64,000 nt of DNA from Candidatus Harrisonbacteria bacterium (GTDB lineage Bacteria; Patescibacteriota; Minisyncoccia; UBA6257; 02-FULL-45-10c), in NCBI GenBank assembly GCA_016192685.1, contig JACPTS010000001.1:161710-225709 (forward strand). Reading direction: 5' to 3'. Under the pieces are notes generated by a model. It did not search any database and had not been told where the DNA came from. It saw only the letters and a list, made by a program, of their open reading frames with translations. Both the position numbers and the translations under genes were made by a program. Below are positions 1 through 37,591 of this stretch, one piece after another; positions within the stretch are counted from its first letter, which is position 1, and the number at the start of each line of letters is the position of its first letter.

Positions 1-174
1 CAATTTTAATTTACCGATTGTCTGCCGGCTTTTCAGTGAAGTTTTATCCGCCGTCATAATCAAAATTTCTAAAATAAAATCTTTATTTTCATCCATCAAA
101 ATTTTTACCGTTTCTTCCAAAGAAAAGGTTTCGTTAATTACCGGCAAAATTATAGAAACATTTTTAGTATTCAT
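1..174 (-). CDS. GT2 glycosyltransferase (Dpm1/ArnC-like), N-terminal fragment running off the window; the ORF track missed it
   Basis: ATG at 174..172 overlaps the stop of the upstream GT-C ORF (ATGA); the translation MNTKNVSIILPVINETFSLEETVKIL has the GT2 N-terminal motif (IILPxxNE). Confidence 0.5.
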   Translation of the reverse strand, partial: MNTKNVSIILPVINETFSLEETVKILMDENKDFILEILIMTADKTSLKSRQTIGKLKL

Positions 175-1757
175 AGTTCATAAACAGCTAGATTACTTCC
201 GCCATAATTTCCTTCCGTCGGGAAACCGCTTACATCCAACTTTTTCAAACGCTCTATCGGATTATCAATCCCCAAAAAAGATTTATAGCGGTAAGTCAAA
301 GCAATTTCATAATCAATAATATAATTGATGTTTGATTTTTGAAAAAATTCCCATAAACGATTCTCTTTCATCGCCTCGTACGCCTGCTGATTTACCAACC
401 CATCCGCGTTCAGCACAAAACGGCCGCTGAAATATCCCATAATTCCGCTGTTAAACGACGCCATTCTCGCGTTTTCCGGCAGATGATTCCTTGCCCACAC
501 CGCCAGACGGTACATATCAGCTTGATTCGCCTGCTGGAAAAAAATATCCTTGGCGTAAAATCCGTAAGAAATTAAATAAAAAATCAGAAAAAAAACCGAA
601 ATTCGTTTTTGGTAAAAAGAAAATGGCTCTTCGCTGATCAATAGAACGGCGAATAAAATCGCGACTATCGGAAAAATGGAAAAATACCAGGGTCGGTTAG
701 ACCAACGAATTCCGCCGTGAACTAAAGCCAAAGACAAAAATCCCAAAAAGAAAATTGCAAATATAGTCCAGCCGGCTGATTTTAAAAATCCAAGACCTTT
801 TCTTTTCCATAAATAAATAACCGGACTGGCCAAAAAACCCGCGAACAACAACAGCCAGGCAGCTGATCTTGCCCACGCCTCAATCGCGTAACGCGACATC
901 GGCAAACCGATAGTCTGCAAAGAAAAAGCCAAAGCTCCGCCAAAATTATAAATTGACCAGAGAATAATCCTTGCTAAGCTGCGGCTCTTGTAAAAAAATA
1001 ATCGATGATTAATCAGGGTATAGGCCAAACCACTGGTCGGGAAAAATGAACCAAAATAAATCTTATTGTATAAAAACCACGGTCCGGCCAGCAGCGCCGC
1101 CGGCAAACAAAACCAAGTCAGCTTCTGCCAATCCGATCCTCTTTTCCAAATAATCGCCAAAACCGTAAAAGCGGCAAATAATCCGTAATCCAAACGGGCC
1201 AAAATCAAAAGTCCGGAAATTATACCCGCCAAAATAAAATTTTTATCGCTGTCTTGGCCGGAAAAAATTTCCAAACAAATTAAAATGAGCCAGCTGAAAA
1301 ATAAAAGTGATAGCGGCGTTTCCAAACCGTTTAAATAAAAAGTTAAATTCCAGGGATTCAAAACATAAGCGCCAAGCAGAATATACTGAACAATCCGATC
1401 TTTTATAAAAAAGTTTATTATTCTCCAAACAATTAATGCGGTAAAAAAATATAAAACCGCCGAAAGCCCCAAAATAACTTTAACTGCCAAAATCTTATCC
1501 GCCGGAATGAAATAATAAATCAACGCCAATAGCCCCATCCAAAGCGGATGATAGCCGTTGGTAAAATGCTCGCCGTCAAAAGTCGGCCCCAATCCCTTTG
1601 CTATATTAGAAGCGATTTTAAAATAATAAAAAGCGTCGTCAATAACAAAATAAGACAATATCTTTTCTATCGGCAAAAAAACCGTAGAAAAATAGGCCGC
1701 GAAAAGCAAGAATAAAAACATCGCGAAGATTTTATTTTCTTTCAAAAGCTGGACCAT
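171..1757 (-). CDS. GT-C fold polytopic membrane glycosyltransferase (PMT/ArnT-like)
   Basis: 528 aa with more than 10 predicted transmembrane helices; the loop motif VIDDAFYYFKIASNIAKGLG...TNGYHPLW is typical of polyprenyl-phosphate-dependent GT-C enzymes. Confidence 0.5.
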   Translation of the reverse strand: MVQLLKENKIFAMFLFLLFAAYFSTVFLPIEKILSYFVIDDAFYYFKIASNIAKGLGPTFDGEHFTNGYHPLWMGLLALIYYFIPADKILAVKVILGLSAVLYFFTALIVWRIINFFIKDRIVQYILLGAYVLNPWNLTFYLNGLETPLSLLFFSWLILICLEIFSGQDSDKNFILAGIISGLLILARLDYGLFAAFTVLAIIWKRGSDWQKLTWFCLPAALLAGPWFLYNKIYFGSFFPTSGLAYTLINHRLFFYKSRSLARIILWSIYNFGGALAFSLQTIGLPMSRYAIEAWARSAAWLLLFAGFLASPVIYLWKRKGLGFLKSAGWTIFAIFFLGFLSLALVHGGIRWSNRPWYFSIFPIVAILFAVLLISEEPFSFYQKRISVFFLIFYLISYGFYAKDIFFQQANQADMYRLAVWARNHLPENARMASFNSGIMGYFSGRFVLNADGLVNQQAYEAMKENRLWEFFQKSNINYIIDYEIALTYRYKSFLGIDNPIERLKKLDVSGFPTEGNYGGSNLAVYEL

Positions 1758-1829
1758 AATACGGACAATAAATTTATTTTACCTCCGAATCGGTTAAAAA
1801 TAAACCCGAAACCCGACATTTCTGTTATA

Positions 1830-3305
1830 TTGTATATCATGAAAGCTTGTTTATTTTTGCACAGAAGATACACCCAAATCGGCCACGCGCTGGCTGTTAA
1901 TCTTAAAAAATTGGGGGTTGCGGAATTTTGCGCCTACGTCAGTTTCCGTCCTCCTTACGATTTTTTGATTTCCCAAAAAGACATCAAATATACCGCCTTG
2001 CTTTTAGACCAAGACTTGCAAAACCAATCCGAAAAAGAAATTTTAGATCCGGAATTTCTTAAAAATCTGGAAAAAAAATACGGGATTCCCAACCTTTGGC
2101 CGTATCTTTACAACGATCGGACAATAATGATGGGAGTTCCGCCGCGAGAATACCAATGGAGCCCCAAACCGCCGTTTTCCCACGAGAAAATGATGAAAGC
2201 CATTCAGGCGCGGGCAAAAGCCATTATTGCGATGCTGGAAAAAGAAAAGCCTAATTTTATTTTTATGGCAGTAGTCAACAATTTGGGGCCGACCCTTCTT
2301 TATCACATCGCCAAAAAAATGGGCATCCGGACTATCTTGTTAAGCCCGACTCGGATTGGCATAAGACAAAATTTAAGCGATGATTATAAAACTTTTACCG
2401 AAACCAATAAAATTTTTGAGGATTATCAAAATGGCATCCGCAAAAATAATCACCGCGAAGAAGCCATAAAATTTCTTGAAACCTTTCGTGCCAATCCCAG
2501 CCCGTATTTTAAAAGATATATTCCCCAATACGGTTATACAAAAATATTCAAATCATTTTTCTGGCTGATTAAAAGCAATCTGAAATATATTTTTAAAAAA
2601 AATAAAGGCTTTGACGATGAAATTCCCTGGCTAACCTTCTGGAATAAGACCCAAATAAAAATGCGGAATCTTTACGGTTTCAGCGATTTTTATTCCGAAC
2701 CAAATTATGAAGAAGATTATGCTTTTTACACTCTGCATGAAGAACCGGAAATGGCCACGCTGCTTTTTGCTCCGCATTATACTGATCAAATACACGTCAT
2801 TAAGCAGATTGCCCGTTCTTTGCCGTTACATTACAAGCTCTATGTAAAAGAACATCCTTATATGGTCGGTTACCGGCCAAGGGCTTACTATAAAGAATTA
2901 TTAAAAATTCCCAATGTCTGCCTTATTAATCCGAACCTAAAAAGTTTTAAACTTACAAGCAACGCCAAAATAGTCTTTGGAATTACCGCTACCGCGAATT
3001 GGGAAGCAATTCTTCTTAAAAAACCGGCTATCAGTTTCGGCGAGGCATTTTACAATAAACTTTCCATGATAAAACGCTGCTCAAGCTATGAAAATCTCCC
3101 CCTTTTAACAAAACAACAGCTTGAAAATTTCCAACACAACGAAGAGGAGCTGATAAACTTTGTTTCCGCTATTCTGGAAGATTCAGTGGAAGCTGATATT
3201 GTTAATCTTTGGGAAGGGCCGATGATAACCAATGAAGAAATGTATGAAAACGAAGGAATCGTCAAACTGGCCGCCTTTTTGGCAAAATATTTAAAAATTT
3301 CCTAA
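1830..3305 (+). CDS. capsule polysaccharide biosynthesis protein (KpsS/KpsC-like, Capsule_synth family)
   Basis: C-terminal KEHPYMVGYRP...SNAKIVFGITATANWEAILLKKPAISFGEAFY matches the KpsS-type HP and G-x-A-x-Y motifs. Confidence 0.45.
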   Translation: MYIMKACLFLHRRYTQIGHALAVNLKKLGVAEFCAYVSFRPPYDFLISQKDIKYTALLLDQDLQNQSEKEILDPEFLKNLEKKYGIPNLWPYLYNDRTIMMGVPPREYQWSPKPPFSHEKMMKAIQARAKAIIAMLEKEKPNFIFMAVVNNLGPTLLYHIAKKMGIRTILLSPTRIGIRQNLSDDYKTFTETNKIFEDYQNGIRKNNHREEAIKFLETFRANPSPYFKRYIPQYGYTKIFKSFFWLIKSNLKYIFKKNKGFDDEIPWLTFWNKTQIKMRNLYGFSDFYSEPNYEEDYAFYTLHEEPEMATLLFAPHYTDQIHVIKQIARSLPLHYKLYVKEHPYMVGYRPRAYYKELLKIPNVCLINPNLKSFKLTSNAKIVFGITATANWEAILLKKPAISFGEAFYNKLSMIKRCSSYENLPLLTKQQLENFQHNEEELINFVSAILEDSVEADIVNLWEGPMITNEEMYENEGIVKLAAFLAKYLKIS

Positions 3306-4023
3306 TTCTATCCAGCGCGATAAATCTTCTGCTTTTAAACACATAAGTGTATTCCTCCCCCTCGCGGCTGCCGAAAAACATTTTAAAATTAGCTACATTA
3401 GCTTTCTGGGGAGTTGAATAATTAATGGAACCTAATCCGACAAATTCATATCCTTTTTCTTTGGCATATTTACAAATCTCAAAAATCAATCTTCTGGTAG
3501 CCGAACCGATAAGCTTATAAAGCTCTTTATTTCTCTCGCCCATTCCCATTCTTTTTGAACACATAGCTCTTACCTGAAGATAAGGAAATAAATCGTAGCA
3601 AGGCACGGAGGCAATCAACTCATCTTTATAATAAGCATTAAAAAGCAAGGTGTTTTGAAAACTGTCTATTTTCCAGGGCTTTCTCCCCTGCGCCCGCTCA
3701 AATTCTTTATAAAGATTATAAGTTTTTTTTAAATCATCGTTGGCAAGCCGGAATTCAAGATTGGAAATCTTGTAAGTCCCCAAAACCTCCTGCCTGGTTC
3801 TTCTCGCGAATCTGTCTAAAATTTCCTCAATTGTCCCGCCTAAATGAATATTGGCCAGTTTTTTACGCACCAAGCCATAACCTTCTTTTTCCAGGCTTAA
3901 ATCATTATAAGAAATTACGGTTATATAATCGTATTTATTCTTATCAAGCAATTCCCTAAGATTTTCTCCTTGATATAAAACCCTCAAAGAATGCAGAAAA
4001 AATTTGTTTTTTTTAAAAATCAT
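3262..4023 (-). CDS. FemAB/GNAT-like acyltransferase
   Basis: 253 aa; acyltransferase-like fold signature; translationally coupled to the upstream fusion gene (4020/4023 overlap). Confidence 0.4.
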   Translation of the reverse strand: MIFKKNKFFLHSLRVLYQGENLRELLDKNKYDYITVISYNDLSLEKEGYGLVRKKLANIHLGGTIEEILDRFARRTRQEVLGTYKISNLEFRLANDDLKKTYNLYKEFERAQGRKPWKIDSFQNTLLFNAYYKDELIASVPCYDLFPYLQVRAMCSKRMGMGERNKELYKLIGSATRRLIFEICKYAKEKGYEFVGLGSINYSTPQKANVANFKMFFGSREGEEYTYVFKSRRFIALDRIRKFLNILPKRRPV

Positions 4024-5870
4024 TTTTGAGCGATATAAATCGGAAATTTATCCAAAAAAGCCAGCGCGAATTCCGGCGCGATTAATAATTTTCTTCCGTT
4101 CCCGATTATTTTAACATCTTTAAAACCCGATCTCAAAAGAGATTTCTTTTCTCCCCAAAGATTATTATAATATTGGGTTACTTTTCCAAAATCATACCTC
4201 TCAATTCTCCAGTGCGGACCGATTTTTAATCTGCCGATATTATTCAAAAATATCCTCCGGCTGGTTTTTGTTCTGGGGATGCAAAGACCGTTGTGGCTGG
4301 AATAAATTAAAACTCCGCCGGGCCTCAAAACTCTCTTCATTTCTTTTATGGCATTTTCCCTTTCTTCCAAAGAAGGCAGATTATCTATTCCATTGAACGA
4401 AAAAAATACGGCATCAAAACTATTGTCTTTAAAATCCAGCTTTCTGGCGTCCATCGCCCTGAAATCAATGCTTGGATAGTCTTTTTGGGCTTGCTCAATT
4501 AAAGGGAGAGAAATATCAACGCCAATAACCCCGCACCCGTTTTTAAAAATATAATAAGTAGTCCTGCCGGCTCCGCATCCGACATCCAATACCCGGGAAC
4601 CGGCCGGCATATATTTTTTAATTACATATTCTTCGCCCGGACGCAAATATTTTTTTGAATATTCCTTAACTGAAAGTTCGGAAGAAAAAGAACGGGTATT
4701 TTCCAGGCCGATTTCAGTTATCTGATTTTTGGAAATTCGTTCAATAAAAGCCAGAATGCTTTCCACTCTTTTTTGCCAGGTATATTTTTTAACATCAATC
4801 AAAGCTTGGGCAACAAGGCCTTCTGAAAAATCGCGGTTTTCAAAAATTTTGATTATAGCCGCGGCCAGATCTGATGGACTGTTCGGAGAAATTAATACGG
4901 AATTATGATTATTAAAAATCTCTTTGAGCGAGGGTAAATTAGTGGTAATAATCGGCCGGCCGGAAGCCATATATTCAAAAACTTTAAGCGGCGACATATA
5001 AAAATTATAATGTTCGTTTTCCGGAAAAGGGGCGATCAAAACATCAAAGGCCCTTAAATATAACGGAATCAAATCGTGTTTTACCATGCCGACAAAAATA
5101 ATTCTGTCTTCTAAATTTCTTGTTTTGGCCTCATTTTTATAAAATTTTATGTCGTCTTCGTGACCTCCCACTAAAACCATAAGAATATCCCGGTGATTTC
5201 TTAAATCAGCAAGAGCCCCAATAGCCGTATCAATGCCTTTTTCCATACCCAAAGTTTTTAACATTCCCGCGTAACCGATGATTTTTTTATCCAATGGCAG
5301 ATTTAATTTCTTTCGGCATTCATCCTTGGTCAAATTAATATTAAATTTTTCCAAATCCACCGCATCAGGCGCAACCAAAATCTTATCAGGAGCTATTCCC
5401 AATTTTACCAATCGCTCTTTTATAAAACTGGTTAAAACAACCAGAGCCTTGGCGCGTCTCATAACCAGCAAATAAAAATTACCGGCGCCCCTGGACAAAG
5501 AATGAACCTCTAAAACAACGCCGCTAAAAAATATCCCGGCGGCCGGCTCTCTGGAATAAAGCAAGTCGTAGTTGGAGAATAAAAGTCTTAATCTGGAAAT
5601 CAATAAAAAACTGTATAGCTGTATAAAAAACGCTATCCGGCTGCCCATAAACCATGGGAAAAGATCCAGACAAAATATTTTTTTTATTAAAAAATTTTTC
5701 TTTATTCCATAATGGTCAAAAGGGTCCTGTTCTTTCTCTATTCTCCTGGGAACCCAAAGCTCAACTTCACAGCCATTTTCCGCGAAAGCCGAGCACATCT
5801 GCATCACTTGAAAACCATGCGCCAAATTGGTGGGCAATCTTGAATTAGAAATATAAATCAGCTTTTTCAT
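4020..5870 (-). CDS. bifunctional GT4 glycosyltransferase (N-terminal) fused to a class I SAM-dependent methyltransferase (C-terminal)
   Basis: GT4 motif EYMASGRPIITTNLPSL; C-terminal VLDVGCGAGRTTYYIF...DNSFDAVFF...LRPGGVLIY (methyltransferase motifs I-III). Confidence 0.7.
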   Translation of the reverse strand: MKKLIYISNSRLPTNLAHGFQVMQMCSAFAENGCEVELWVPRRIEKEQDPFDHYGIKKNFLIKKIFCLDLFPWFMGSRIAFFIQLYSFLLISRLRLLFSNYDLLYSREPAAGIFFSGVVLEVHSLSRGAGNFYLLVMRRAKALVVLTSFIKERLVKLGIAPDKILVAPDAVDLEKFNINLTKDECRKKLNLPLDKKIIGYAGMLKTLGMEKGIDTAIGALADLRNHRDILMVLVGGHEDDIKFYKNEAKTRNLEDRIIFVGMVKHDLIPLYLRAFDVLIAPFPENEHYNFYMSPLKVFEYMASGRPIITTNLPSLKEIFNNHNSVLISPNSPSDLAAAIIKIFENRDFSEGLVAQALIDVKKYTWQKRVESILAFIERISKNQITEIGLENTRSFSSELSVKEYSKKYLRPGEEYVIKKYMPAGSRVLDVGCGAGRTTYYIFKNGCGVIGVDISLPLIEQAQKDYPSIDFRAMDARKLDFKDNSFDAVFFSFNGIDNLPSLEERENAIKEMKRVLRPGGVLIYSSHNGLCIPRTKTSRRIFLNNIGRLKIGPHWRIERYDFGKVTQYYNNLWGEKKSLLRSGFKDVKIIGNGRKLLIAPEFALAFLDKFPIYIAQK

Positions 5871-5903: not shown

Positions 5904-6695
5904 TTATGCCCAATTAAACGGTTCTAAATAAAACCACCGCATCCTCGCAGACTGTCCCGCCGCCAGACTGTCGTGTCTTCCTTCGTCCATACTATTAAAA
6001 ATAAAATATTTTTTAAAAAAAACATTATAAAGTTTAGGCAGAATCATTGGAAAATCCTCAAGCATCCTTTTTCTTTCCCATATTTCAGTGATTTTATGGG
6101 TATTTTTAAAACGGCCTTGAATCATGTCTCCAATTCCATCAAATACGCAACAATCATGTATCTCAACTATTATATGGCAGGTATTGAGTTTTGGAATTAT
6201 AAAATTATCCAAAAGAATTGCTTCCGCTCCCTCTATATCCATGATAATCAAACATTTTTTATTATTCGGTATGCTTTCGGTTAAAGACTTGGCGTCGCAC
6301 AATCCATAAACTTTTATCCTATCAAAGACACCATTGATTCTGGCCATTTTCTCTATGGAATCCCTGCCATTTTTATCCGCCTCAAAAGCAATAATTCCGG
6401 CCTTAGGATTTTTCATAGCCATGCCAACGGCATAATATCCTTCCGCCGCCCCGACATCAATAATAACCTCAAATGATTTTTCAAATGTCTTTCTTATTGT
6501 CGGAGCTATTTCCAATTCATAGGTTCCCAGAAGCTTTGGCAGAAAACGGCTTCCTACGCTCTCATCAACATACTTCATGCCCAAAAAGGGGCCTGAAATT
6601 ACTGTATTATTAATTTTCCGCTTAAAAAAATAGGTAACGTATTTCCGGGTGATAAATCTTTCTAAATACCGATTTAAAATACGAAATAGCTTCAT
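5904..6695 (-). CDS. FkbM-family methyltransferase
   Basis: VIIDVGAAEGYYAVGMA...IIAFEADKNGRDSIEKMARINGV...IIMDIEGAE. Confidence 0.7.
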   Translation of the reverse strand: MKLFRILNRYLERFITRKYVTYFFKRKINNTVISGPFLGMKYVDESVGSRFLPKLLGTYELEIAPTIRKTFEKSFEVIIDVGAAEGYYAVGMAMKNPKAGIIAFEADKNGRDSIEKMARINGVFDRIKVYGLCDAKSLTESIPNNKKCLIIMDIEGAEAILLDNFIIPKLNTCHIIVEIHDCCVFDGIGDMIQGRFKNTHKITEIWERKRMLEDFPMILPKLYNVFFKKYFIFNSMDEGRHDSLAAGQSARMRWFYLEPFNWA

Positions 6696-6702: not shown

Positions 6703-8466
6703 TTATTTAATTACTTTGAAAATTAAATTGTTTTCCACGGCGGCCGCTAATTCCAAAAAAGGATAATTCATAAATTCTTTCTCTAAATAGCCGTATTCGC
6801 TATCGTCCCTATCCAATAAAATATAATCAGCGGAATATTGCTTCAAAGATTTTTCAAATCCAAGTTCTCTGTAAAAATCAATTTTTTTTAAAATTCTATC
6901 AACATATTCTTTCGGAACCAATGTGCTCGGCCTGGTCTTAACCTTAAAAAGACCCAAAATCTTGTTGCGAATCACTTCATTTTGGTATCTTTCTATAAAT
7001 TTATTGGTCCAAATATTCATATTTTCTCCCTCAATATATCCGCCATCAATTCCCTTTTTGAAAAAGTTTTGCGCAATCCATCGATTTTCCAATTCATCGT
7101 CAGAAATCAGAAATCGGCCGACATCGGGATTCCAAAAAACATTGTTGGAAGTATAAATAGGAATAAACCAGCCATAATTTTTTCCAAGCGAATAAACAGC
7201 GGAATTTTTCGGGGAATTATCATTAAACCAATCCGCCACGCCGGAAAGCTTTTGCCAATCCTTCAATGCGGAAATATTCGCAGGCATTATAAACCAAGAA
7301 GAGCCGAATTCAATTCCCTTTCTCTCCCGATAAAATAAAAAGCTTAAAAGAAGCAATATTAAAATAACCGCTAAATAACTTTTAGCGTTTAAAATATTGC
7401 TTTTATAATTCTTCCAAATTATTGAAGCGCAAAAAGCGAAAATTAAGAACAAAAACAATACCACAATCGGATAATAATGCGTTGAAAAAGAAAGCGCCTT
7501 GCCAGTCAGAACATTTTGCCAATTCAATGCCGTGCCGCCCAAAACCAAACTATAAACAAAAATATTTTTTTTGTAATCGGCGCCTTTGCCAATAAAATAC
7601 CAAATCACCAAACCAGCGACGATAAGCGAAACATTAAAATAGGCAGCCGGGTAATGATTCAATAAAAATCCAAAGCGGAACCAAATATCAATATAATCAG
7701 GATATGATTCCGCTTTCTTCAAATTCAAAAAATATGGAATAACAAATAACGCGGCGGGAATGATAAAAAGCAAAAAATTCTTAAAGTGATAAACTATTCT
7801 TTTCTCCTTAATAGCTAAAAAAAGCAGGGTTAGGCAATAAACGGCCAGAATAGCCGCCCAACAATAAGGATAAATATATAAAACCGCGCTGGAAACCATA
7901 GCCAAAATAAAATTCAATATTGCCAGCTGCTTCCAAGTTTTTTCTTTATCGCTGATAATTTTCAAAACCAATAACAAACCTAAAAACAAAAAAATAAAGC
8001 TGAATTGCGGATTAATGGGCCTATTAAAATAGAAAATAAATAATAAATAATAAAAAGCGGAAAAAATACTGGCCATAACCCTAGACTCAACCAATTGCAA
8101 TATCAAAAAATAGAGAATTGCCACGCCCATAAAGGGCAATAAAAAATCATTTATCGCCGCCGCGGCCGGAACAGATAAATTAATAAATTTCGCTTCAAAA
8201 GCCAAAATAATTTCTGCCAATGACGGAGTTATGTAGGGTTCGTCTTTATGTTCTTTTAAATAAACATTTCCAAAATTATAATGACCGTCATAAGCCTCCT
8301 TAGTCATGGCTATATAATGAGTCTCGTCATTATTAAACATCGGGAAAATACCCTTAAAATCAGGTCCAATTTTGCTGATAACAGAAATGGTCGGGAAAAC
8401 AATCAATACTCCTATTGTAAAAGCAAATAAAAAAATAAAGCCGTGCTGTTTTAGGAATTGCTTCAT
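6703..8466 (-). CDS. polytopic membrane protein, GT-C-like (possible glycan polymerase/transferase)
   Basis: 587 aa with more than 12 transmembrane helices; DE-containing first loop (FNNDETHYIAMTKEAYDG) similar to the neighbouring GT-C genes. Confidence 0.4.
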   Translation of the reverse strand: MKQFLKQHGFIFLFAFTIGVLIVFPTISVISKIGPDFKGIFPMFNNDETHYIAMTKEAYDGHYNFGNVYLKEHKDEPYITPSLAEIILAFEAKFINLSVPAAAAINDFLLPFMGVAILYFLILQLVESRVMASIFSAFYYLLFIFYFNRPINPQFSFIFLFLGLLLVLKIISDKEKTWKQLAILNFILAMVSSAVLYIYPYCWAAILAVYCLTLLFLAIKEKRIVYHFKNFLLFIIPAALFVIPYFLNLKKAESYPDYIDIWFRFGFLLNHYPAAYFNVSLIVAGLVIWYFIGKGADYKKNIFVYSLVLGGTALNWQNVLTGKALSFSTHYYPIVVLFLFLIFAFCASIIWKNYKSNILNAKSYLAVILILLLLSFLFYRERKGIEFGSSWFIMPANISALKDWQKLSGVADWFNDNSPKNSAVYSLGKNYGWFIPIYTSNNVFWNPDVGRFLISDDELENRWIAQNFFKKGIDGGYIEGENMNIWTNKFIERYQNEVIRNKILGLFKVKTRPSTLVPKEYVDRILKKIDFYRELGFEKSLKQYSADYILLDRDDSEYGYLEKEFMNYPFLELAAAVENNLIFKVIK

Positions 8467-16252: not shown

Positions 16253-16324
16253 AAAAATTTATAAATTATTAATATTACCGCTCTTTTTTAAAACATTCCG
16301 GACTCAGTCAAGGTTTTCTTGTGA

Positions 16325-28454: not shown

Positions 28455-29116
28455 TCTTCTAAAGCAGATTTAAGCCTTAAATTATCAGGATTAGCCATCA
28501 ACCCTTGCAATAAAATACTTTCTGTCTGATTAGATTTTTCCTTATAAACCGATTCATAAATAGTCGCCAAGTCTAAATAAGCTTGGATGTTTTGCGGATT
28601 ATTTTGAATAGATTTAAGATAATTTTCTTCGCTTTTGGGATAATCTTTTATATAAAACCCGTACAAATCTCCCAAATTATGATAGCCGATATAATCTTTA
28701 GGGCGAATCAAAGCTCCAAAAGCCCAGGCCTCAGCCGCGCCGCTATAATCACCGATCACCCGACGATAAGCTCCCAAATCATACCAAGCGTAAATCGTGT
28801 CGTAATCAGATCTTATTAAATCGGAAATTTCTTTTATTTTTGCCTCTGCCCGTTTTCTATCAATTTCCGCAAGCGGCGCGCTAACCATAACTGGCCGGGA
28901 AATAATTTCGGCGGCCATCGCCCTTAAAACTTCTTTATTATCTTTTTTAACAATTTCTTCTACTGGCGGCTTTTCTTCAATTTTTGAAGCCGTTGATAAA
29001 TTTTCCGGCAGCTTAATTTCCGGAACTAAAGCGCTGCCCCGCTTCGGGCTAAAATACCAACCAGCAACACCAAGAACCGCTACTGCCAATAAAATTAAAA
29101 GTAATTTTTTTATCAT
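28439..29116 (-). CDS. membrane-anchored TPR-like repeat protein
   Basis: N-terminal transmembrane helix; C-terminal YxxLGxxY TPR-like repeats. Confidence 0.45.
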   Translation of the reverse strand: MIKKLLLILLAVAVLGVAGWYFSPKRGSALVPEIKLPENLSTASKIEEKPPVEEIVKKDNKEVLRAMAAEIISRPVMVSAPLAEIDRKRAEAKIKEISDLIRSDYDTIYAWYDLGAYRRVIGDYSGAAEAWAFGALIRPKDYIGYHNLGDLYGFYIKDYPKSEENYLKSIQNNPQNIQAYLDLATIYESVYKEKSNQTESILLQGLMANPDNLRLKSALEDYISK

Positions 29117-30831: not shown

Positions 30832-31767
30832 TAAAAGGCAGTAATTTGAGGTCCGACAATCGGGAAAGAATTATTTTTAGTAATCGTAGCTACGCGGTTA
30901 AGGTCATTATAGTCGTAAGCCGAAACATCCAAGACAGATTCAATATCTAACCGAACATATGGTTTTTCCGCTCCGTAACTATAAGTAACAAAATACCCCA
31001 ATACATAATAACTATTTCCGGAGACGATTAGCCCCTTATTTTCTTTAGTTTCATTGGGAATAAGCTTAAATTCAACAACTCCACTTTGAGAAATATCCGC
31101 TTCCGCCAATACCGGACCACTATCCGCGTTAGCTAATAATTTAAATTTCGTAAGATAAAGATTATTAAAAGTGCCTTTATTTTTAAAGCGAATTTGGGTA
31201 ATAGCGATTTTTTCGTCCGCGGAAACTTTAAAAGCGGTTAAAGTTTTTTCTCCGTAACTGCTTAGGGTTATTGATGGATAGGTTGTTTCAATCTTGAGCG
31301 TGCTTTCAAAAGGATTGGGTAAGATTACTGCCGGGGTTGTAGTGGCAACAGCTTCTTCTAAAACTGGTTTAGGCTCTGGCATTGATGCTGGCTCCGGCGC
31401 TTGGGTCGGTGCCGGAGCTGGAGCTGAAACCGCTGCCGGTGCTTGCCCTGAGCTTGCCGAAGGGCCGCCCATTTTCGCCCGAGTTCTCGGACCAAAATAT
31501 CCGGCTGCCGGAGAAACTCCGTTCGCGGCCTGCCATTTGGCAAGAGCTTTCTTGGTTAGAGAACCGAAGGTTTCGGTTTCATTGCCAGGAGAGCCTGCGC
31601 CGCTAAGAGGTAAGGGGGGTGGGAGCTGCTAATTGAGTTTGCAAGTTAGCGATTTGCGCTAACAAGGCTGCAATTTGCTCTTCCAAAGTTGCTCCGTGGA
31701 CGACTGTCAATACGCCAACGCCAGAAAGCGAAACAATTGTAGCCGCTAATAATAATTTCTTTTTCAT
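30831..31767 (-). pseudogene. secreted PG-binding Ser/Thr/Pro-rich surface protein, paralog of the N-terminus of ORF 33555..37193, interrupted by a +1 frameshift in a G6/C6 homopolymer (31614..31619)
   Basis: The ATG at 31767 gives MKKKLLLAATIVSLSGVGVLTVVHGATLEEQIAALLAQIANLQTQLAAPTPLTS*, with the stop at 31603..31605. The downstream frame reopens at 31628 and continues as ...SGAGSPGNETETFGSLTKKALAKWQAANGVSPAAGYFGPRTRAKMGG... to 30831. Deleting one G from the run fuses the two into a continuous 311-aa ORF. Confidence 0.5.
31466..31698. repeat. copy 1 of a duplicated DNA cassette (139 bp plus 75 bp identical segments) encoding the signal-peptide-proximal and PG-binding module shared with the gene at 33555..37193
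   Basis: 31466..31604 is identical to 36778..36916; 31624..31698 is identical to 37019..37093. Confidence 0.85.
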
Positions 31768-31775: not shown

Positions 31776-33461
31776 TTATAACTTAAATTTATAAACCGTA
31801 AACATTAAAAGATTATCATAGCCATAGATTGTTTTTACAGGGCTTAGGCGCAATTCTTGATTCAAAAATAATTCCAAATCTTCAGCGGCATTAGAATGAA
31901 ATATCGGATTCAAATACGTCTTCCGGCTTGCTTTGGCAAAATAAATATCATAGCCGTCAAATCGGCTAGCGCCGTCTTTTAAAAAATTTTTAAATTGAGT
32001 TACCGTAAAACTTGGGAAGCCGGAATAATACGTGCGCCTGGTAAAAACCCAAAGCCGCGGCGACAAAGCTATATTTTCATCATAAATAATAATGGTTGAT
32101 TTTTCGCTGGCCGGAATCCGCCGGGCGTTCATTTTAAGAAGGCGGTCTAAATGCGGATTGGAAGAAGCCGGAATGGCCAATGACCGTTTCTGGCCCAATT
32201 CAACATCAAAATAATGGTCTAAAGCAGCTATCCCAAAATCCGGAAAGGTCAGAAAAATATCAATCGCAAAAAATAATTCGTAAGCCAAAAAGGTAACCAA
32301 TAAAATCTTAAATAGAACTTCTTTGTGGAATTTAGAATATAAATAATCAAAAAAGTAAGCAATAAGCATAGCCGCGGGCGCGGCATATAAAACGATAAAG
32401 CGGAATGCCGAGCCGATTTTAATAAGCATTAGAGTAATAAAAATAAAATTAAGCAGCCAAAAAATTAAATAATTCTCATTGGTCTTATTAGTCCTATAGG
32501 ACTTATAGGTCCGATAAGCCGCCCAACCGATCCCAGTTAAGGCCGCCAAAAGAAACGGAATAGAATACATCAATGTCAAATTAGAAATAATCTCCGAAAA
32601 GGGGTCTTGAATTTTTCCTAATGACGCCCGCCATTCAGGAGTTGGCTGATTAAATACATACGCAAACTGCAAATCAAAATGGCCAACCGTCTGCCAAAGA
32701 TAAAAATTGTAAATCAAAACTGGACTAAACAATAAAAACGCTAAACCGAAAGCGGAGAACAAATAGGCCCAATCAGTCCTATCAGACCTATTGGTCCAGT
32801 AAGTCTTATAAGTCCAATAAGTTAGATAAACCGGCACCAAGAAAATACTCGTGTATTTTGTTAAAAAAGCAAGGCCGAGCGTCATGCCGAATAGCCACCA
32901 ATCTTTGGAGGTTCGACCTCCATTGGAGGTCGAACCTCCCCAAAGTTTAAAAAAATAATAAATGTTTAAAAGGATGAAAAAAATCTGGACTGATTCAAAT
33001 AAACTGGAACGGGAAATCCAGATATGAATCAAACTGAGAGAAAGCAGCAGAGGCGCGAAAAATTTTGACAATGAATTTATGAAAACTCTCTCTGATAATA
33101 GATAAACCAAATAAATTGATAAAATGCCGGCAATCGCCGACGGCAAACGGGCGACAAAAAGCGAATTTCCAAAAATTTTAAAAAATAGATTCTGGATTAA
33201 AAAAAAGAGCGGAGGATGGTCATGAAAGGAAAGATGCGTCCACCAAGGCAAGACCGCTGCGTCTTTAAACCATTGGATCGGCGCGGTTTGGTCGTCATTT
33301 TGGATATAATCCAGATAGCCGATGGAACGAAATGCGGTAAAGCCCTCGTCGTGGTAAAATTCCGAAGAACCAAGCCCCCAAAATCGCAAAAGCGCGGCTA
33401 AAAAAAGAATCGCGATTAAGACCTGTTTTTCGGTAATTTTATATCCAAAGATAGTAAACAT
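31776..33461 (-). CDS. GT-C protein O-mannosyltransferase-like (PMT/ArnT family)
   Basis: YHDEGFTAFRSIGY DE motif; LFVARLPSAIAGILSIYLVYLL; LGLAFLTKYTSIF; carries a 33-nt perfect GC-rich palindrome insert (32903..32945) that the paralog lacks. Confidence 0.7.
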   Translation of the reverse strand: MFTIFGYKITEKQVLIAILFLAALLRFWGLGSSEFYHDEGFTAFRSIGYLDYIQNDDQTAPIQWFKDAAVLPWWTHLSFHDHPPLFFLIQNLFFKIFGNSLFVARLPSAIAGILSIYLVYLLSERVFINSLSKFFAPLLLSLSLIHIWISRSSLFESVQIFFILLNIYYFFKLWGGSTSNGGRTSKDWWLFGMTLGLAFLTKYTSIFLVPVYLTYWTYKTYWTNRSDRTDWAYLFSAFGLAFLLFSPVLIYNFYLWQTVGHFDLQFAYVFNQPTPEWRASLGKIQDPFSEIISNLTLMYSIPFLLAALTGIGWAAYRTYKSYRTNKTNENYLIFWLLNFIFITLMLIKIGSAFRFIVLYAAPAAMLIAYFFDYLYSKFHKEVLFKILLVTFLAYELFFAIDIFLTFPDFGIAALDHYFDVELGQKRSLAIPASSNPHLDRLLKMNARRIPASEKSTIIIYDENIALSPRLWVFTRRTYYSGFPSFTVTQFKNFLKDGASRFDGYDIYFAKASRKTYLNPIFHSNAAEDLELFLNQELRLSPVKTIYGYDNLLMFTVYKFKL

Positions 33462-33494: not shown

Positions 33495-33521
33495 AAAACC
33501 CCCCGCAAAGCGGGGGGTTTT
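33495..33521. terminator. rho-independent terminator hairpin (bidirectional), downstream of the giant surface protein gene
   Basis: aaaaccccccgc-aaa-gcggggggtttt. Confidence 0.6.
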
Positions 33522-33554: not shown

Positions 33555-36500
33555 CTATTTAGACAAAGTGGTAGCGGTCATGTTCGTTGCCGGTAATCCA
33601 GTCACGCCATAACCATTGGTCCAGTCCAGATTGTACTGGTACTGAAGATTAGATTCATTGGATGAAGTGGATCGCGGCGACCAAATAAAGTCGTTTTGAC
33701 CGTCACTGTTTATCGTGCTAGCTGAACCAAGAGTACCAGCAGTTACGCCACCACTGCCAACATATTGGCCAGGAGTCAAAGTCGGATAAGCCGAGTCGCC
33801 TTCCAACTGAACGCTAAGGTTTTCAGCAGTTCCAGAAGGAGCGAGTGTGCCAACCGAACCTCTTAATTCAAACCAGCGGGATTCGCCGGAAGGAATCTTC
33901 ATAGTAGTGGTGCCTAAGGCACAACCAGTTTTGTCCGGGAAGATTTCCACAAGCGCGGAGCCTGTTCCAAGATTTCCGCCAGTAGCAGCTGATGCGCCAG
34001 ATGTCCTGCCATTGTAGCAATTCCCAGCGTTAATCAAACCGCCAGCATTGTTCGCTCCGCTAAAATCACCGTCTGGAGAACTATATCCGGAATCAGTGAA
34101 AGCGTAAAGCGAAAACTTAGTGGTAGTAGCATTGGAACTTGCCGCTGTTGACGAAGATACGCTGAAAGAAAGCTTAAACAAGTTAATGTCTCCTTGTTTA
34201 GCAGTTATCTTAAAGCGATAGAGCGGCAAGCCATCCTGCGCTTGAAGGGTCTTGTTCGCAAGAGTGCCAGCTTCAAACGTCGGATAAGCTCTCATAATCC
34301 TAACACCGGTGGAAGAGGCAAGAGCGCTGGTCGGAGTAATTGTCTGACCAGAAGAAAGGCCGGTTCCATAGTTAGAAGTGAGGCCGCCGCCGCCGTCATA
34401 GTCAACTTTCAATAAATCGCCAGATTTAACGAGCGGACCAGAAGCGGAAATTCCAGCAAGAGTTCCTTTGACAGTCAAAACTTTAGAACCGTCTTTTGGA
34501 ACTGTGAAGCCGGTAATGGTCGTAGAAGTAGCATTGTCGTTACTGGAGAAAGTGGCAGTGCCAAGCTTGGTAGCTCCATCCCACAAAGTAACTTCTTGGT
34601 TAACTAAGTCAACCGGAGTGTTAGAAGCGCCATCGCTCAATATCAGAGTCAATTGTTTGATGGAAACATCTTCATTAGTAGCGCTGTACTTCAAACGGGA
34701 CAACGTTACTGTTTCGCCAGGAGAAGCAACTAGATAATTCTCTGTAGCTTCCAAGGTAACCGCGAAACTGCCATTGGTTGTCGCCGACATCAATTGGCCC
34801 ATATTATCGTTTTCCGTTACAGTGGCGCTCTGTCCGGATACCAAACCAGTTGGCGACGGAGAAGAATCGCTATCATAACCCCAACGATAAGAACCAGTGG
34901 CCGCGGATTTCAAATCGCACTTCAAAGACAATTGCTTGGTAGCTCCCTTGGTAAGGGTCAAGCCAGTGCCGTCAAAAGTAAACGAAGTGGAAGAACCGCG
35001 AGCCGAAGGATTGACCACGTTACCGCCAGTGGTAAGCAAGGTCGCGCCATCATAAAGTTTGCAGTTAGTTAAATCAGTCGCGCTGCCGCTCGGAATATTA
35101 TATTCCAATGGAAGCGAAGTTAACCGCAAATCTTCACCGGATGCCGCCGTATCCAAGATATACTTGGCAAACTCAAACTGCTGAACGCCAGCAATAACAG
35201 TCTGCGCGATTGGCACAGACGAAACACTGACAGTCATTGCCGGACCTTTGGCAGTCATAGTCTGGCCCGAAACTTTAGAAGTCGGGCTAGGAGTAACTGT
35301 AACGCCAGTAGCTTGGCCAGTTACCGTACCCCAGTCACTGGAAGGAGTAGTAGAAGCCACAATCGTGTCGTTATTTTCAAACGCAGTTGTGCCAGCTGCT
35401 AATTTACCAACCATTTTAAGTTTGGTAACGCCAACCGGGAAGGTAATCGTATCAGTGAAAGTCAAGTTGGCTGTTCCAGCAGTATCCAAAGCTGTTGAGC
35501 TCGGATCAACCGGACCGGCAAGAGTCTTGCCAGTAGCCGCATCAATAAGCTTTACATTATCTAAGTCATCTAGACCAAGACCGGTAGTACCGGAGCTTTG
35601 CGTAAGCGTAATGTGCATTTTTATACTGCCAACAGAAATCTGTTCACCTTTAACATCAACTGACCATCCGCCTAACGGCTGATCAGCCAAGTTAATGGCG
35701 ATATTTTGAGCCGCCACGGTGTTATCCGCGCTAACGGTCATAGTTCCGGTAGAAACCAAGACCTGAGCCGCGTCATACCATGGGTCTTCTGTGTTGCTGA
35801 AAGCGGCCGTATCATCGGTCGGATCAGTTGACCCGGTTTGCGGAGGAATAATGCCATAGCCATAGGTTTCGCCTACGACAAAGAGATCAGTCCTTTTCGC
35901 AAGATCAAAGTCAATTGTCCTGGATGATCCGCTGACAACGTCACCTTTGAGATTGACTTCTTTATTAAAGCCCTTGTCAATCAAGATACCGCTGCCTGGG
36001 AAAACTGATGAATAATACTTCCCATCAGAACTTATAGTAGTGTCGTAGGAAGTACCATCAACAACGGTTTTCACATTGCCCAAATCCGAAGATCCGGCAG
36101 AACCGGTTTGATTCCAACGGATAGACTTCAAATAGACTTTTTCGGCAGAGCCGGCAGTAACTTTAACCGAAGAAAAGGTGTAACTCGTGGTACCAATTTC
36201 TTTGGTTTGGCTAGCGCCTGGATCTAACGGGCCACGAGCCATAGTAACGCTACCAATTGTTAAGGTTTCGTTAATGGTATGAGTGGTTCCAGTAAGAGGC
36301 AAAGCGCCATTTACGGCTGCTGAGGTATTAACCGCAGTTACCCGCAAAGCCAAAGTCTGGCCTCCATAAGAGCCGCCGACAGCTGCGCGATTTGCCGCAA
36401 CCGTTACAACTTTAGTGGTACCGGCTGCTACTTTCATTGACTCGCCAACTGTGGCTTTATGCTCGGAACTTAAAGTCTTTTTAAGGCCAAGCTGGTTGCC

Positions 36501-37193
36501 AGCATCATCTAATAAGAGAACGCTGTCCAAAGCCGCGTCAGCAGCTAAACCAGTTCTTTCTACTGTTAATCCGGTAACAGTTACATCGCCGTCAGCAGAA
36601 GCAGTCAAGTAAACCTTAGTAAAAGGAATTCTTGCCGCATCGCCAGGAGCGAGAGTCGCTGTTGGCTGGTCTGGAGCTAACGTTACCGTTAATCCAGTGC
36701 CTTGCGGTGTTACTACCACCACTGGAGCTGGCGTTGTACCGCCAGTTGTTGGAGCTGGTGCTGGAGCCGCTGCCGCGCCGCCCATTTTCGCCCGAGTTCT
36801 CGGACCAAAATATCCGGCTGCCGGAGAAACTCCGTTCGCGGCCTGCCATTTGGCAAGAGCTTTCTTGGTTAGAGAACCGAAGGTTTCGGTTTCATTGCCA
36901 GGAGAGCCTGCGCCGCTATATTGCTGTAAGGCCTTGACTGCCGCTCCTTTGCTGCCGAGGGTGAGGTCCCCAGAAGAGGTAAGGGTAGCGGAAGCAGTGC
37001 CTGTTCCAGCTGATTCTTGAGCTGCTAATTGAGTTTGCAAGTTAGCGATTTGCGCTAACAAGGCTGCAATTTGCTCTTCCAAAGTTGCTCCGTGAGCAGC
37101 CATTGGAAGCAAAGTTCCTGCTCCGGAAAGGGAAATAACTGTCGCAATTGATACGACAGCTGTAGAAACTTTGTTAATTAATTTATTTTTCAT
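33555..37193 (-). CDS. giant secreted Thr/Ser/Gly/Ala-rich cell-surface protein with N-terminal signal peptide and peptidoglycan-binding-like domain (S-layer-like, candidate O-glycosylation substrate)
   Basis: 1212 aa. Signal peptide MKNKLINKVSTAVVSIATVISLSGAG, then a coiled segment, then a PG_binding_1-like LGSKGAAVKALQQY...ETFGSLTKKALAKWQAANGV...GYFGPRT, then more than 1000 aa of low-complexity T/S/G/A-rich beta-like repeats. Confidence 0.7.
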   Translation of the reverse strand: MKNKLINKVSTAVVSIATVISLSGAGTLLPMAAHGATLEEQIAALLAQIANLQTQLAAQESAGTGTASATLTSSGDLTLGSKGAAVKALQQYSGAGSPGNETETFGSLTKKALAKWQAANGVSPAAGYFGPRTRAKMGGAAAAPAPAPTTGGTTPAPVVVVTPQGTGLTVTLAPDQPTATLAPGDAARIPFTKVYLTASADGDVTVTGLTVERTGLAADAALDSVLLLDDAGNQLGLKKTLSSEHKATVGESMKVAAGTTKVVTVAANRAAVGGSYGGQTLALRVTAVNTSAAVNGALPLTGTTHTINETLTIGSVTMARGPLDPGASQTKEIGTTSYTFSSVKVTAGSAEKVYLKSIRWNQTGSAGSSDLGNVKTVVDGTSYDTTISSDGKYYSSVFPGSGILIDKGFNKEVNLKGDVVSGSSRTIDFDLAKRTDLFVVGETYGYGIIPPQTGSTDPTDDTAAFSNTEDPWYDAAQVLVSTGTMTVSADNTVAAQNIAINLADQPLGGWSVDVKGEQISVGSIKMHITLTQSSGTTGLGLDDLDNVKLIDAATGKTLAGPVDPSSTALDTAGTANLTFTDTITFPVGVTKLKMVGKLAAGTTAFENNDTIVASTTPSSDWGTVTGQATGVTVTPSPTSKVSGQTMTAKGPAMTVSVSSVPIAQTVIAGVQQFEFAKYILDTAASGEDLRLTSLPLEYNIPSGSATDLTNCKLYDGATLLTTGGNVVNPSARGSSTSFTFDGTGLTLTKGATKQLSLKCDLKSAATGSYRWGYDSDSSPSPTGLVSGQSATVTENDNMGQLMSATTNGSFAVTLEATENYLVASPGETVTLSRLKYSATNEDVSIKQLTLILSDGASNTPVDLVNQEVTLWDGATKLGTATFSSNDNATSTTITGFTVPKDGSKVLTVKGTLAGISASGPLVKSGDLLKVDYDGGGGLTSNYGTGLSSGQTITPTSALASSTGVRIMRAYPTFEAGTLANKTLQAQDGLPLYRFKITAKQGDINLFKLSFSVSSSTAASSNATTTKFSLYAFTDSGYSSPDGDFSGANNAGGLINAGNCYNGRTSGASAATGGNLGTGSALVEIFPDKTGCALGTTTMKIPSGESRWFELRGSVGTLAPSGTAENLSVQLEGDSAYPTLTPGQYVGSGGVTAGTLGSASTINSDGQNDFIWSPRSTSSNESNLQYQYNLDWTNGYGVTGLPATNMTATTLSK
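36778..37093. repeat. copy 2 of the duplicated cassette (N-terminus of the giant surface protein gene)
   Basis: see copy 1. Confidence 0.85.
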
Positions 37194-37591
37194 AATCTTT
37201 TTTTGACCTTTCCTCTTGAACTAAATTTATCGACGATTTAACCCAAGAAGAAATTTTTTAGTTATTAATTTGTTAATTTTACGTTTCAAAAATTATCCCT
37301 TTTTACTGTCCCCGCTAAGCGGAGCCGACCCCAGTAAAAGAATAATCTGATATCTAAATGAAAAATCTCGCTTTTGAGCGAGACTGAATTCATTAACTGA
37401 CAACTAACGACCGACGACAAACAACTTTAAAAGTCGTTAGTCGTAAGTTATTAAGTCGTAAGTCAATTTTTCGATCCAGCCTCACTCTGAATCTCTACTT
37501 TTTTAGTATATAACTTTTAGCCTAAAATCTCAAAGCTAAATTGTGTATAATAGGAGACTTTTGGGCTTCAGAATATATAACGATATTGGAG

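Follow-up and report, generated by a model that had tools for sequence, protein, structure and literature searches.

A probable surface-glycosylation island in Candidatus Harrisonbacteria and a giant wall-anchored protein as its candidate target

What does a bacterium of the Candidate Phyla Radiation (CPR, Patescibacteria) do with 37 kb of neighboring glycosylation genes, and to which molecules do their products add sugars? The question is raised by a stretch of 64 kb from Candidatus Harrisonbacteria, here called the window, in which the product of gene 171-1757 carries the locus tag HYY86_00830. The block 1-37200 has a coding density of 97%, and its genes lie nearly all on the minus strand. 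Past 37.2 kb the window carries housekeeping genes (ClpB, a cysteine desulfurase-type aminotransferase, PGM/PMM, FtsK, RecA, FolD and CofD). The sequence beyond the left edge was read over 8 kb from the identical contig L073. An initial annotation had proposed a protein O-glycosylation island in a CPR bacterium; the CPR origin is correct, and all coordinates given there are present as open reading frames (ORFs). The 1-37 kb block is very probably a dense gene set for adding sugars to the cell exterior. Beside its conserved core lies the gene of a giant threonine/serine-rich, wall-anchored protein (BIG, 33555-37193), the most likely target candidate. We read the locus as an island with which a monoderm CPR bacterium would glycosylate its surface outside the cytoplasm, and in which enzymes resembling protein O-mannosyltransferases (PMT) may act on BIG and on a smaller surface protein, SMALL. 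We regard the evidence for this reading as evenly balanced.

The first step is the identity of the membrane enzymes. Seven GT-C proteins, all on the minus strand, are encoded in the island as annotated, with a polytopic N-terminal module in the conserved GT-C helix arrangement. Four of them match the Pfam models PMT_2 and/or PMT over cut-off: 11370-12830 (PF13231, 49.9 bits), 16325-17668, 29137-30831 (PMT_2, 75.9 bits) and 31776-33461. The last two are here called GT39B and GT39A; the product of GT39A is 100% identical to an NCBI 'glycosyltransferase family 39 protein'. The PMT model PF02366 (gathering cut-off 22.7 bits) matches GT39B with 55 bits, GT39A with 44 bits and 16325-17668 with 28.9 bits, and leaves the other four unmatched. 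The protein 171-1757 (528 aa, about 10 hydrophobic segments) has itself no Pfam match; it is related to PMT_2 via its homologues, many of which carry PF13231, and shows a weak NCBIfam match to LA_3751/3752. The protein 22111-23793 is Alg9/GT22-like, with Glyco_transf_22 over cut-off and a weak PMT_2 match, and 6703-8466 (587 aa) belongs to a family without a Pfam model. GT39A and GT39B share 42% identity and form the sole detectably related pair, while the other five give no mutual matches by phmmer. The seven proteins belong to six different families, and their earlier description as a multi-paralog set does not hold.

The motif evidence is less specific than it first appeared. A D[DE] pair stands directly after the first transmembrane segment (TM1; residues 33-49) in six of the seven GT-Cs, as IDDA in 171-1757, NDE in 6703-8466, IDE in 11370-12830 and IDDE in 22111-23793, whereas 16325-17668 has D-A instead. 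In A2 every sequence has D38, and E39 reaches at least 90% conservation; the same lower limit of 90% applies to D47 in A6. The motif had been taken as the loop-1 DE motif of PMTs. It is present, but we rejected it as a PMT marker because otherwise unrelated GT-Cs of the window share it, as does ArnT. The profile of the GT39A/B subfamily places fungal Pmt1, Pmt4 and Pmt2 (2e-8 to 3e-5) ahead of ArnT (1e-4) among PDB entries; a single-sequence phmmer search of PDB with GT39A gave no match, and the family profile alone found these relatives. No MIR domain is matched in GT39A/B, and in its place the predicted model shows a C-terminal alpha/beta domain of about 160 aa; the enzymes also have conserved motifs of their own (GHFDLQ). 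Bacterial Pmt enzymes likewise have no MIR domain. The sequences of GT39A/B appear to lean towards PMT over ArnT, although fold and motifs do not settle the type of acceptor. In three relatives an extra membrane protein of 470-509 aa is encoded between SMALL and GT39B (L003, 10962-12491; L004, 10019-11548; L007, 12643-14055). The L003 copy has no Pfam match and the L007 copy gives a weak 57 bits to the GT39 profile, so that the latter may be another divergent GT-C.

The second step is the donor. The GT-Cs would need lipid-linked sugars, and the island encodes four short GT2s of the polyprenyl-phosphate glycosyltransferase clade (Dpm1/GtrB/ArnC), one fewer than annotated: 1-174, the 5' end of a Dpm1-like gene of 239 aa in full, complete with Glycos_transf_2 on L073; 12781-13563, Dpm1/AglJ-like; 14797-15495, Dpm1/ArnC/GtrB-like; and 21383-22114, Dpm1-like (all minus strand). 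Their nearest characterised relatives are polyprenyl-P-sugar synthases. The NCBIfam top ranks are AglJ (104 bits for 14797-15495), PpgS, Dol-P-hexose transferase, ArnC and PgfS, all under the equivalog cut-offs. With 14797-15495 as query, the PDB top ranks are archaeal dolichol-phosphate mannose synthase (DPMS; 5mlz, 3e-15), ArnC (9hwj, 3.5e-15) and GtrB. The proteins, 232-260 aa long, end in no more than a single segment of hydrophobic or amphipathic character. In this they are like the short Dpm1/PpgS type, and the C-terminal transmembrane helices of GtrB and archaeal DPMS are absent from them.

Three GT-C/GT2 pairs had been described as translationally coupled. The overlaps exist: ATGA joins the stop of GT-C 171-1757 to the start of the partial GT2 at 171-174 and the stop of GT-C 22111-23793 to the start of GT2 21383-22114 at 22111-22114, and the 3' end of GT2 12781-13563 overlaps its downstream GT-C gene by 35-50 nt at 12781-12830. 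We do not count them as evidence of pairing, because the same 4-nt and 1-nt overlaps join unrelated neighbors (3262/4020, 23800/24966 and 16325/17668).

Gene fusions in relatives support the partnership of GT2 and GT-C beyond adjacency. In L051 a polypeptide of 808 aa carries Glycos_transf_2 (20-183) followed by PMT_2/PMT (313-474), and its GT2 half scores 114 bits against GT2 21383-22114 and about 40 bits against the other two. The family of 6703-8466, which at E<=1e-3 comprises 2051 cluster representatives, shows three kinds of N-terminal fusion: with a CE4 (carbohydrate esterase family 4) deacetylase in P0132, P0134 and P0135, with a GtrA_DPMS_TM flippase domain in P0343, and with Glycos_transf_2 in P0350. 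In the window the CE4 gene (8480-9214, minus strand; Polysacc_deac_1, 65 bits) lies directly upstream of GT-C 6703-8466. The fusions imply that the PMT-like and the 6703 families both work with a lipid-linked sugar made by a GT2. The CE4 enzyme is probably cytoplasmic, since its domain precedes TM1 of the GT-C in all three CE4 fusions and a hydrophobic leader is absent from P0132 and P0135, the two that were read in sequence. The fusions further suggest that CE4 acts on the lipid-linked sugar intermediate. The 6703 family itself is assigned by its predicted structure together with the fusions. Searches of PDB with the family profile were empty, and hhalign found no significant similarity between it and the GT39 family (probability 1.5%). 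The best structural match of the predicted 6703-8466 model is AftA, an arabinan builder. The annotated logic, in which a GT2 makes a polyprenyl-P-sugar for a GT-C, is strengthened by the fusions.

The third step is the acceptor, for which gene order in relatives is the main guide. ORFs were called in 72 related loci and labelled with the window proteins. All homologues of the PMT-like pair come from Patescibacteria. In about 30 of 68 Patescibacteria loci a cassette of regulator, S/T-rich protein of about 1200 aa, PMT-like GT-C, tetratricopeptide repeat (TPR) protein and GT4 run is present despite rearrangements. Its order is a DeoR-type helix-turn-helix (HTH) regulator, BIG (about 1200 aa, S+T 22-26%), optionally GT39A and SMALL, then GT39B with a TPR protein (about 240 aa), a single GT4 that faces the other way, a further three GT4s, and often GT2 21383 and/or GT-C 22111. 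In the window these positions are filled by the HTH gene 37592-38236 (minus strand), BIG, GT39A, SMALL (30831-31767, minus strand), GT39B, the membrane-anchored TPR protein 28439-29116 (minus strand; 225 aa, TPR_17, with an L044 orthologue that matches many TPR families), the GT4 27312-28454 (plus strand), and the consecutive GT4s 26080-27282, 24966-26078 and 23800-24969 (minus strand). The alternating order BIG, GT-C, SMALL, GT-C on the minus strand had been annotated correctly.

The association of BIG with the PMT-like enzymes is not incidental. Within three genes of the 92 distinct GT39-subfamily genes, BIG is found in 40 cases and the TPR protein in 48, across divergent Patescibacteria. 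The association of BIG with GT39 extends down to about 30% identity and withstands inversions (L051, L072) and changes in the order of TPR and GT-C genes. It is kept even in Buchananbacteria-type loci, where the N-terminal PG-binding (peptidoglycan-binding) and linker part of BIG is swapped for an unrelated domain. SMALL accompanies BIG in 18 loci. It is missing from 12 BIG loci, of which seven have a single GT39, always B-type, and five have two. Wherever an A-type GT39 lies between BIG and the next gene in BIG loci, SMALL follows. The TPR protein stands next to B-type GT39 in nearly every cassette locus, and no GT-C/TPR fusion occurs among 120 homologues. Three large secreted S/T-rich proteins unrelated to BIG are also encoded near GT39-subfamily genes (L018, L069, L071). 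A GT2 is adjacent to or fused with a GT-C in L010, L039, L042, L051, L055 and L058, and GT2 21383-22114, of the type fused or adjacent to PMT-like GT-Cs in relatives, lies 7 kb from BIG-GT39A-SMALL-GT39B. The island thereby shows the Pgf-type arrangement of a candidate substrate gene adjacent to a GT2 and a PMT_2 GT-C.

The HTH gene lies directly upstream of BIG in relatives as well, and the DeoR-type protein may regulate the surface-protein cassette. The order ClpB, a 255-aa protein without assigned family, HTH protein and BIG is conserved in the window (37592-41703) and in L001, L003, L007, L016, L029, L031, L033, L042 and L045.

BIG and SMALL had been described as two Thr/Ser-rich secreted proteins with a peptidoglycan-binding N-terminus. 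This is right for BIG. In the 1212-aa protein (33555-37193, minus strand) S+T amounts to 24.5%, where the median for the window is 9.6%. A signal peptide and coiled coil lead into PG_binding_1, and a Pro/Thr/Ala linker joins this domain to a body of about 1000 aa. The PG_binding_1 domain is found in 16 of 23 BIG orthologues and carries in the window copy an in-frame gap of 30 nt (10 aa, 'LNANGAQIAA') relative to them. Pfam scans of family members gave PG_binding_1 and no further domain, the body matched no Pfam family, the BIG family profile found no PDB relative, and no known S-layer or anchoring domain (SLH, CWB2 etc.) was detected in Pfam and PDB searches. The S and T residues are distributed through the folded-looking body and do not form repeats of the serine-rich-repeat (SRR) type. 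Just after the PG-binding domain, BIG orthologues almost always have a poly-Thr, Thr/Ser or Pro-Thr tract, as shown by L001 and L013 with 12-13 Thr in a row and by L072 with TPTPTPTPPGTPTPP. SMALL orthologues have Ala/Pro/Thr linkers.

The window copy of SMALL has only 8.5% Thr and is not intact. Its gene starts at 31767 and encodes a signal peptide and coiled coil, then an 86-nt deletion with a frameshift, a linker and a C-terminal beta domain; the 213-aa ORF 30831-31472 is its 3' part. Intact orthologues have PG_binding_1 and measure 308-373 aa; compared with intact forms of 332-354 aa, the deletion removes half of the PG-binding domain. It lies between exact repeats shared by the 5' parts of SMALL and BIG (31464-31605 = 36777-36918, 142 nt; 31623-31698 = 37019-37094, 76 nt), and because of this placement the frameshift could be an assembly artefact. 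Gene conversion, paralogue recombination or assembly collapse could each explain the repeat-associated lesions of the two genes. Between BIG and GT39A, there is a perfect GC-rich hairpin at 33499-33517 (CCCCCCGC-AAAG-GCGGGGGG type). T-runs accompany it on either strand, and it looks like an intrinsic terminator that works in both directions. Strong expression of BIG, with some read-through to the glycosylation genes, would be in keeping with such an element.

Short repeats are scattered through the same genes. Oligonucleotides of the ACTTATAACTT, GACTTGAGACTT, AAGTCTTATAAGTCC and ACTTACGACTT types occur within coding DNA at 24195-24228, 26458-26537, 27898-27919, 30180-30206, 32479-32515 and 32774-32818, at matching positions in paralogous GT4 and GT39 genes, and give peptide inserts such as KSYKLLVKSYKL, TTYDLRLTT and TYWTYKTY. 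A 22-nt element, CTTCGRCRAGCTCAGGGCARGC, is common to 26267-26288 in a GT4 gene and 31441-31462 in the SMALL linker (minus strand). It encodes '...SSGQA...', had no matches in 100 shuffles, and its peptide recurs in the L031 SMALL orthologue; it may be a small mobile or repeat element frequent in CPR genes.

The remaining genes bear on sugar supply and on soluble transfer steps. Eight GT4s are counted, where at least nine had been annotated: the four of the cassette, 9267-10436 (plus strand), 18145-19287 and 20262-21362 (both minus), and 4020-5870 (minus), which is fused to a class I S-adenosylmethionine (SAM) methyltransferase. With the FkbM-family enzyme 5904-6695 (TIGR01444, 38 bits, cut-off 37.7) and the SAM methyltransferases 10433-11401 and 19289-20215 (all minus), the four methyltransferases of the annotation are confirmed. 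The calls of UXS-like, RmlA-like, CE4 and KpsS-like enzymes stand as well. The UDP-glucuronate decarboxylase (UXS)-like short-chain dehydrogenase 13743-14819 (plus strand) matches human UXS1 (2b69, 1.4e-62) with 215 bits, the next match reaching 120 bits. The RmlA-like sugar-1-phosphate nucleotidyltransferase 15524-16252 (minus strand) scores 200 bits for NTP_transferase and 262 bits for rmlA, under the cut-off of the latter, and the KpsS/KpsC-like Capsule_synth protein is encoded at 1830-3305 on the plus strand (PF05159, 30.9 bits, cut-off 20). CE4 8480-9214 ranks by sequence with PgaB/IcaB-type deacetylases. A 253-aa protein without a family match (3262-4023) and a 135-aa protein with a weak DUF6165 match (17668-18075), both on the minus strand, complete the inventory.

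Beyond position 1 the island extends at least 8 kb in the same genome (L073, 11584-18355). In order, this part encodes the complete GT2, an epimerase, an RGP/STELLO (GT75, UDP-arabinopyranose-mutase family) protein, a methyltransferase, a Polysacc_synt_2 (PseB-like) dehydratase, a DegT aminotransferase and a CTP_transf_3 (CMP-sugar-type) cytidylyltransferase. The annotated pentose decoration is plausible in view of the UXS-like enzyme and the RGP/GT75-family gene just past the edge. These genes hint at arabinofuranose and at nonulosonic or Kdo-like sugars in the island, and a nonulosonic or Kdo-type sugar would suit the KpsS-like protein. A PRPP-based three-component pentofuranose system (PMC11127046) was considered and set aside because no UbiA/PRPP-type synthase is present.

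Taken together, we propose the following route. At the cytoplasmic face the short Dpm1/GtrB/ArnC-type GT2s would load sugars on polyprenyl phosphate, supplied by the UXS-like and RmlA-like enzymes of the island and by PGM/PMM elsewhere in the window. In one module the cytoplasmic CE4 would probably de-N-acetylate the lipid-linked sugar. The lipid-linked sugars would be flipped by a flippase encoded outside the window; no dedicated flippase gene of GtrA, MATE, Wzx or ArnE/F type is found in 1-64 kb or in L073. The six GT-C families would then transfer the sugars to acceptors outside the membrane. The conserved core, with two PMT-like GT-Cs, the membrane-anchored TPR partner and the GT4 run, would be dedicated to BIG and SMALL, and the PMT-like enzymes would most likely O-glycosylate their Thr/Ser-rich linkers or body. 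The other GT2/GT-C modules and the methyltransferases may elaborate that glycan or another envelope glycan. Folds, family ranks, fusions and synteny are results in this scheme, while the identities of the sugars, the flipping step and the kind of acceptor are inferred. The route from GT2 through a lipid-linked, flipped sugar to GT-C transfer outside is well supported and in our judgement highly likely. A protein acceptor is plausible, with the arguments for and against it in near equilibrium.

The protein acceptor is favored by the PMT lean of GT39A/B, the rearrangement-resistant linkage to BIG/SMALL, the Thr-rich linkers, the extracytoplasmic TPR partner and the precedent of Streptococcus mutans. 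Several observations weigh against it and hold our estimate where it is. The run of GT4s equals the GT-Cs in conservation, a PMT-type pathway would make no use of it, and one GT-C matches an arabinan enzyme. About half of the GT39-subfamily genes stand alone in housekeeping contexts without BIG, and Buchananbacteria-type BIG has no Thr linker and still has two adjacent GT-Cs. Tandem duplication of a unit made up of PG-binding protein and GT-C can account for GT39A and SMALL occurring together. No flippase, priming phosphoglycosyltransferase, LCP ligase or Wzy_C transferase is encoded in 1-64 kb and 8 kb past the left edge. In this genome SMALL is disrupted while GT39A is intact, the terminator-like hairpin separates BIG from GT39A, and the D[DE] motif is a feature of GT-C enzymes at large.

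The serious rival is a lipoglycan or secondary cell-wall glycopolymer, in which cytoplasmic GT4s would build a lipid-linked core and the GT-Cs would extend and branch it after flipping with polyprenyl-P-sugars made by the GT2s. The models for this are PIM/LM/LAM and arabinan assembly in Actinobacteria and the side-chain glycosylation of wall polysaccharides in Gram-positives. BIG would then be co-located as an envelope protein within or binding that layer and not as acceptor. Eight GT4s, four GT2s and seven GT-Cs in one operon-like block would suit such a pathway, as would the GT4 run of the cassette, the AftA-like structure of 6703-8466, the Alg9/GT22-like 22111-23793 and the genes for pentose and nonulosonic-type sugars, and monoderms commonly have GT-C systems for the modification of wall polymers (PMC8035078, PMC5836110). 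Yet a priming transferase, a polymer exporter and an LCP ligase are not seen in about 72 kb, the tight adjacency that resists rearrangement is specific to the PMT-like GT-Cs and BIG/SMALL with their Thr-rich linkers, and the profile places PMT above other GT-C families. We consider the glycopolymer possible but short of probable. A general O-glycosylation system for many secreted proteins, like that of Pmt in Actinobacteria, with BIG adjacent through inherited synteny and envelope co-regulation, would account for the stand-alone half of the subfamily, for the three or more paralogues on different contigs in several genomes, and for the parallel with Streptomyces, where substrates are numerous and unlinked to pmt (PMC6593405). 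It fits poorly with an association that outlasts inversions, order changes and domain swaps and with GT39A tracking SMALL, and we judge it improbable.

Two further explanations carry little weight. BIG could be glycosylated in the cytoplasm by the GT4s before export, like serine-rich-repeat adhesins by GtfA/GtfB, with the GT-Cs serving another target. The clustering of GT4 genes beside an S/T-rich giant protein would agree with this, but accessory SecA2/SecY2 or Asp genes are absent, BIG has an ordinary signal peptide, and its S and T are spread through a folded-looking body without SRR repeats; we find it very improbable. Still further from the data is the proposal that the GT-Cs are ArnT-like enzymes modifying a membrane lipid, as in lipid A modification. 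They score just 23-33 bits against the cut-off of 567 of the ArnT equivalog NF009784, and Patescibacteria are monoderm and have no lipid A, so we give this proposal almost no credence.

Within the preferred reading of glycosylation of BIG and SMALL, a bolder version can be formulated. In many Patescibacteria a conserved machine would decorate one giant PG-anchored protein, outside the cell, with a complex, methylated, pentose-containing heteroglycan, sugar by sugar, by up to six unrelated GT-C families each with its own short GT2; one of them, without a Pfam model, would use a lipid-linked aminosugar de-N-acetylated in the cytoplasm, and the PMT-like enzymes would be offered their protein substrate by the TPR protein. 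This version is speculative and we think it unlikely.

Some observations lie outside these subjects. The housekeeping part of the window contains four tRNA genes at 54797-58912 (His-GTG, Arg-TCT, Pro-TGG and Gly-TCC). In the related locus L021 one 505-aa ORF (13671-15188) unites LexA DNA-binding, S24 peptidase and N6/N4 DNA methylase domains in an unusual fusion. At 15643-19197 of the same locus, a class I aminoacyl-tRNA synthetase has His_Phos_1 inserted in its catalytic domain (residues 499-651), and similar ORFs of 1159-1188 aa are present in L015, L019, L020 and L028.

CPR bacteria account for much of the diversity of bacteria, and their way of life is attachment to other cells, yet their surface chemistry is almost uncharted. 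The island yields a testable enzyme-substrate proposal, namely GT2 21383-22114, GT39A/B and the TPR protein acting on the linkers of BIG and SMALL. It also assigns a GT-C family of about 2,000 representatives without a Pfam model to the transfer of lipid-linked sugars via its GT2, GtrA and CE4 fusions. If the acceptor is a protein, O-glycosylation of the Pgf/Pmt type extends to CPR bacteria and offers a handle on their attachment surface; if it is a glycopolymer, the island would offer a first sketch of how CPR bacteria make a wall glycan or lipoglycan. Should the bolder heteroglycan version be true, this would be the most elaborate bacterial protein glycosylation of the PMT type known, and a likely determinant of host attachment in CPR.

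The closest precedent among known systems is the S. mutans locus cnm-pgfS-pgfM1-pgfE-pgfM2, in which transcription of the gene for Cnm, a Thr-rich, wall-associated adhesin, passes a leaky terminator and continues into pgfS (GT-A) and pgfM1 (PMT_2 family) (PMC5856776). Streptococcal GtrB and PgtC2 similarly glucosylate Ser/Thr-rich regions (PMC12041528), and in both systems the glycosylation of such regions is extracytoplasmic (PMC5856776, PMC12041528). The island shares with them a surface-protein gene directly upstream of glycosylation genes, a terminator (here a terminator-like hairpin) in between, and a GT2 with PMT_2-family GT-C partners. It differs from Pgf in having seven GT-Cs of six families, four GT2s, eight GT4s, methyltransferases and an obligatory TPR partner, and in its candidate target, which combines PG_binding_1 with a novel 1000-aa body and has no LPxTG; the host belongs to CPR.

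In the actinobacterial Ppm1/Pmt (GT39) system a polyprenyl-P-sugar synthase likewise feeds a PMT-family GT-C, and the sugar is accepted by Thr/Ser within Pro/Ala/Thr-rich regions of secreted proteins, which often have to do with the cell wall (PMC5882110, PMC6593405). Actinobacterial pmt is unlinked to its substrates, whereas GT39A/B lie beside theirs if BIG and SMALL are the acceptors; the island enzymes also have the C-terminal alpha/beta domain and the GHFDLQ motif, and the island GT2s lack a membrane domain. GtrA/GtrB/GtrC, CsbB/YfhO and GacI/GacL are multi-component systems for the transmembrane glycosylation of O-antigen, lipoteichoic acid and wall polysaccharide (PMC8035078, PMC5836110). 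The division of labor among GT2, flippase and GT-C is the same, and the GT2 and GtrA fusions of the 6703 family tie in with it; no GtrA or other flippase gene is present in the window, and the GT-C families differ. In the Arn pathway the steps follow as ArnC, ArnD, flip and ArnT (PMC4402001). A GT2 and a CE4-family enzyme act there on a lipid-linked sugar at the cytoplasmic face before the GT-C, an order that the CE4-GT-C fusion mirrors. Here lipid A is lacking, an aminotransferase or formyltransferase is not next to the CE4 module, and the CE4 ranks with PgaB/IcaB-type enzymes.

The mycobacterial pathways for phosphatidylinositol mannosides, lipomannan and lipoarabinomannan and for arabinan also place GT4s inside, a Ppm1-type GT2 for donor supply and many GT-Cs outside, and one GT-C of the island matches AftA. 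Genes for decaprenyl-phosphoribose and for a phosphatidylinositol anchor are absent here, and the link to surface-protein genes is absent in mycobacteria. The eukaryotic TMTC1-4 are protein O-mannosyltransferases in which a PMT_2-like GT-C carries TPRs on the non-cytoplasmic side; in the island the TPR protein is a separate polypeptide. More than 3,800 bacterial genomes encode GT39 enzymes, which have received minimal study (PMC11727336). The initial annotation called such a system uncharacterised in CPR bacteria, which is fair. Searches of the literature that paired Patescibacteria with S-layer glycosylation, O-mannosyltransferase or GT39/PMT enzymes found nothing relevant, while the principle has its close precedent in the cnm-pgf locus (PMC5856776) and is known already from Pgf, Pmt/Ppm1 and Gtr-type systems (PMC8035078). 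What is new is the CPR setting, the cassette of BIG, GT-C, TPR protein and GT4s, the presence of six GT-C families in one island, and a large Pfam-less GT-C family with CE4, GtrA and GT2 fusions.

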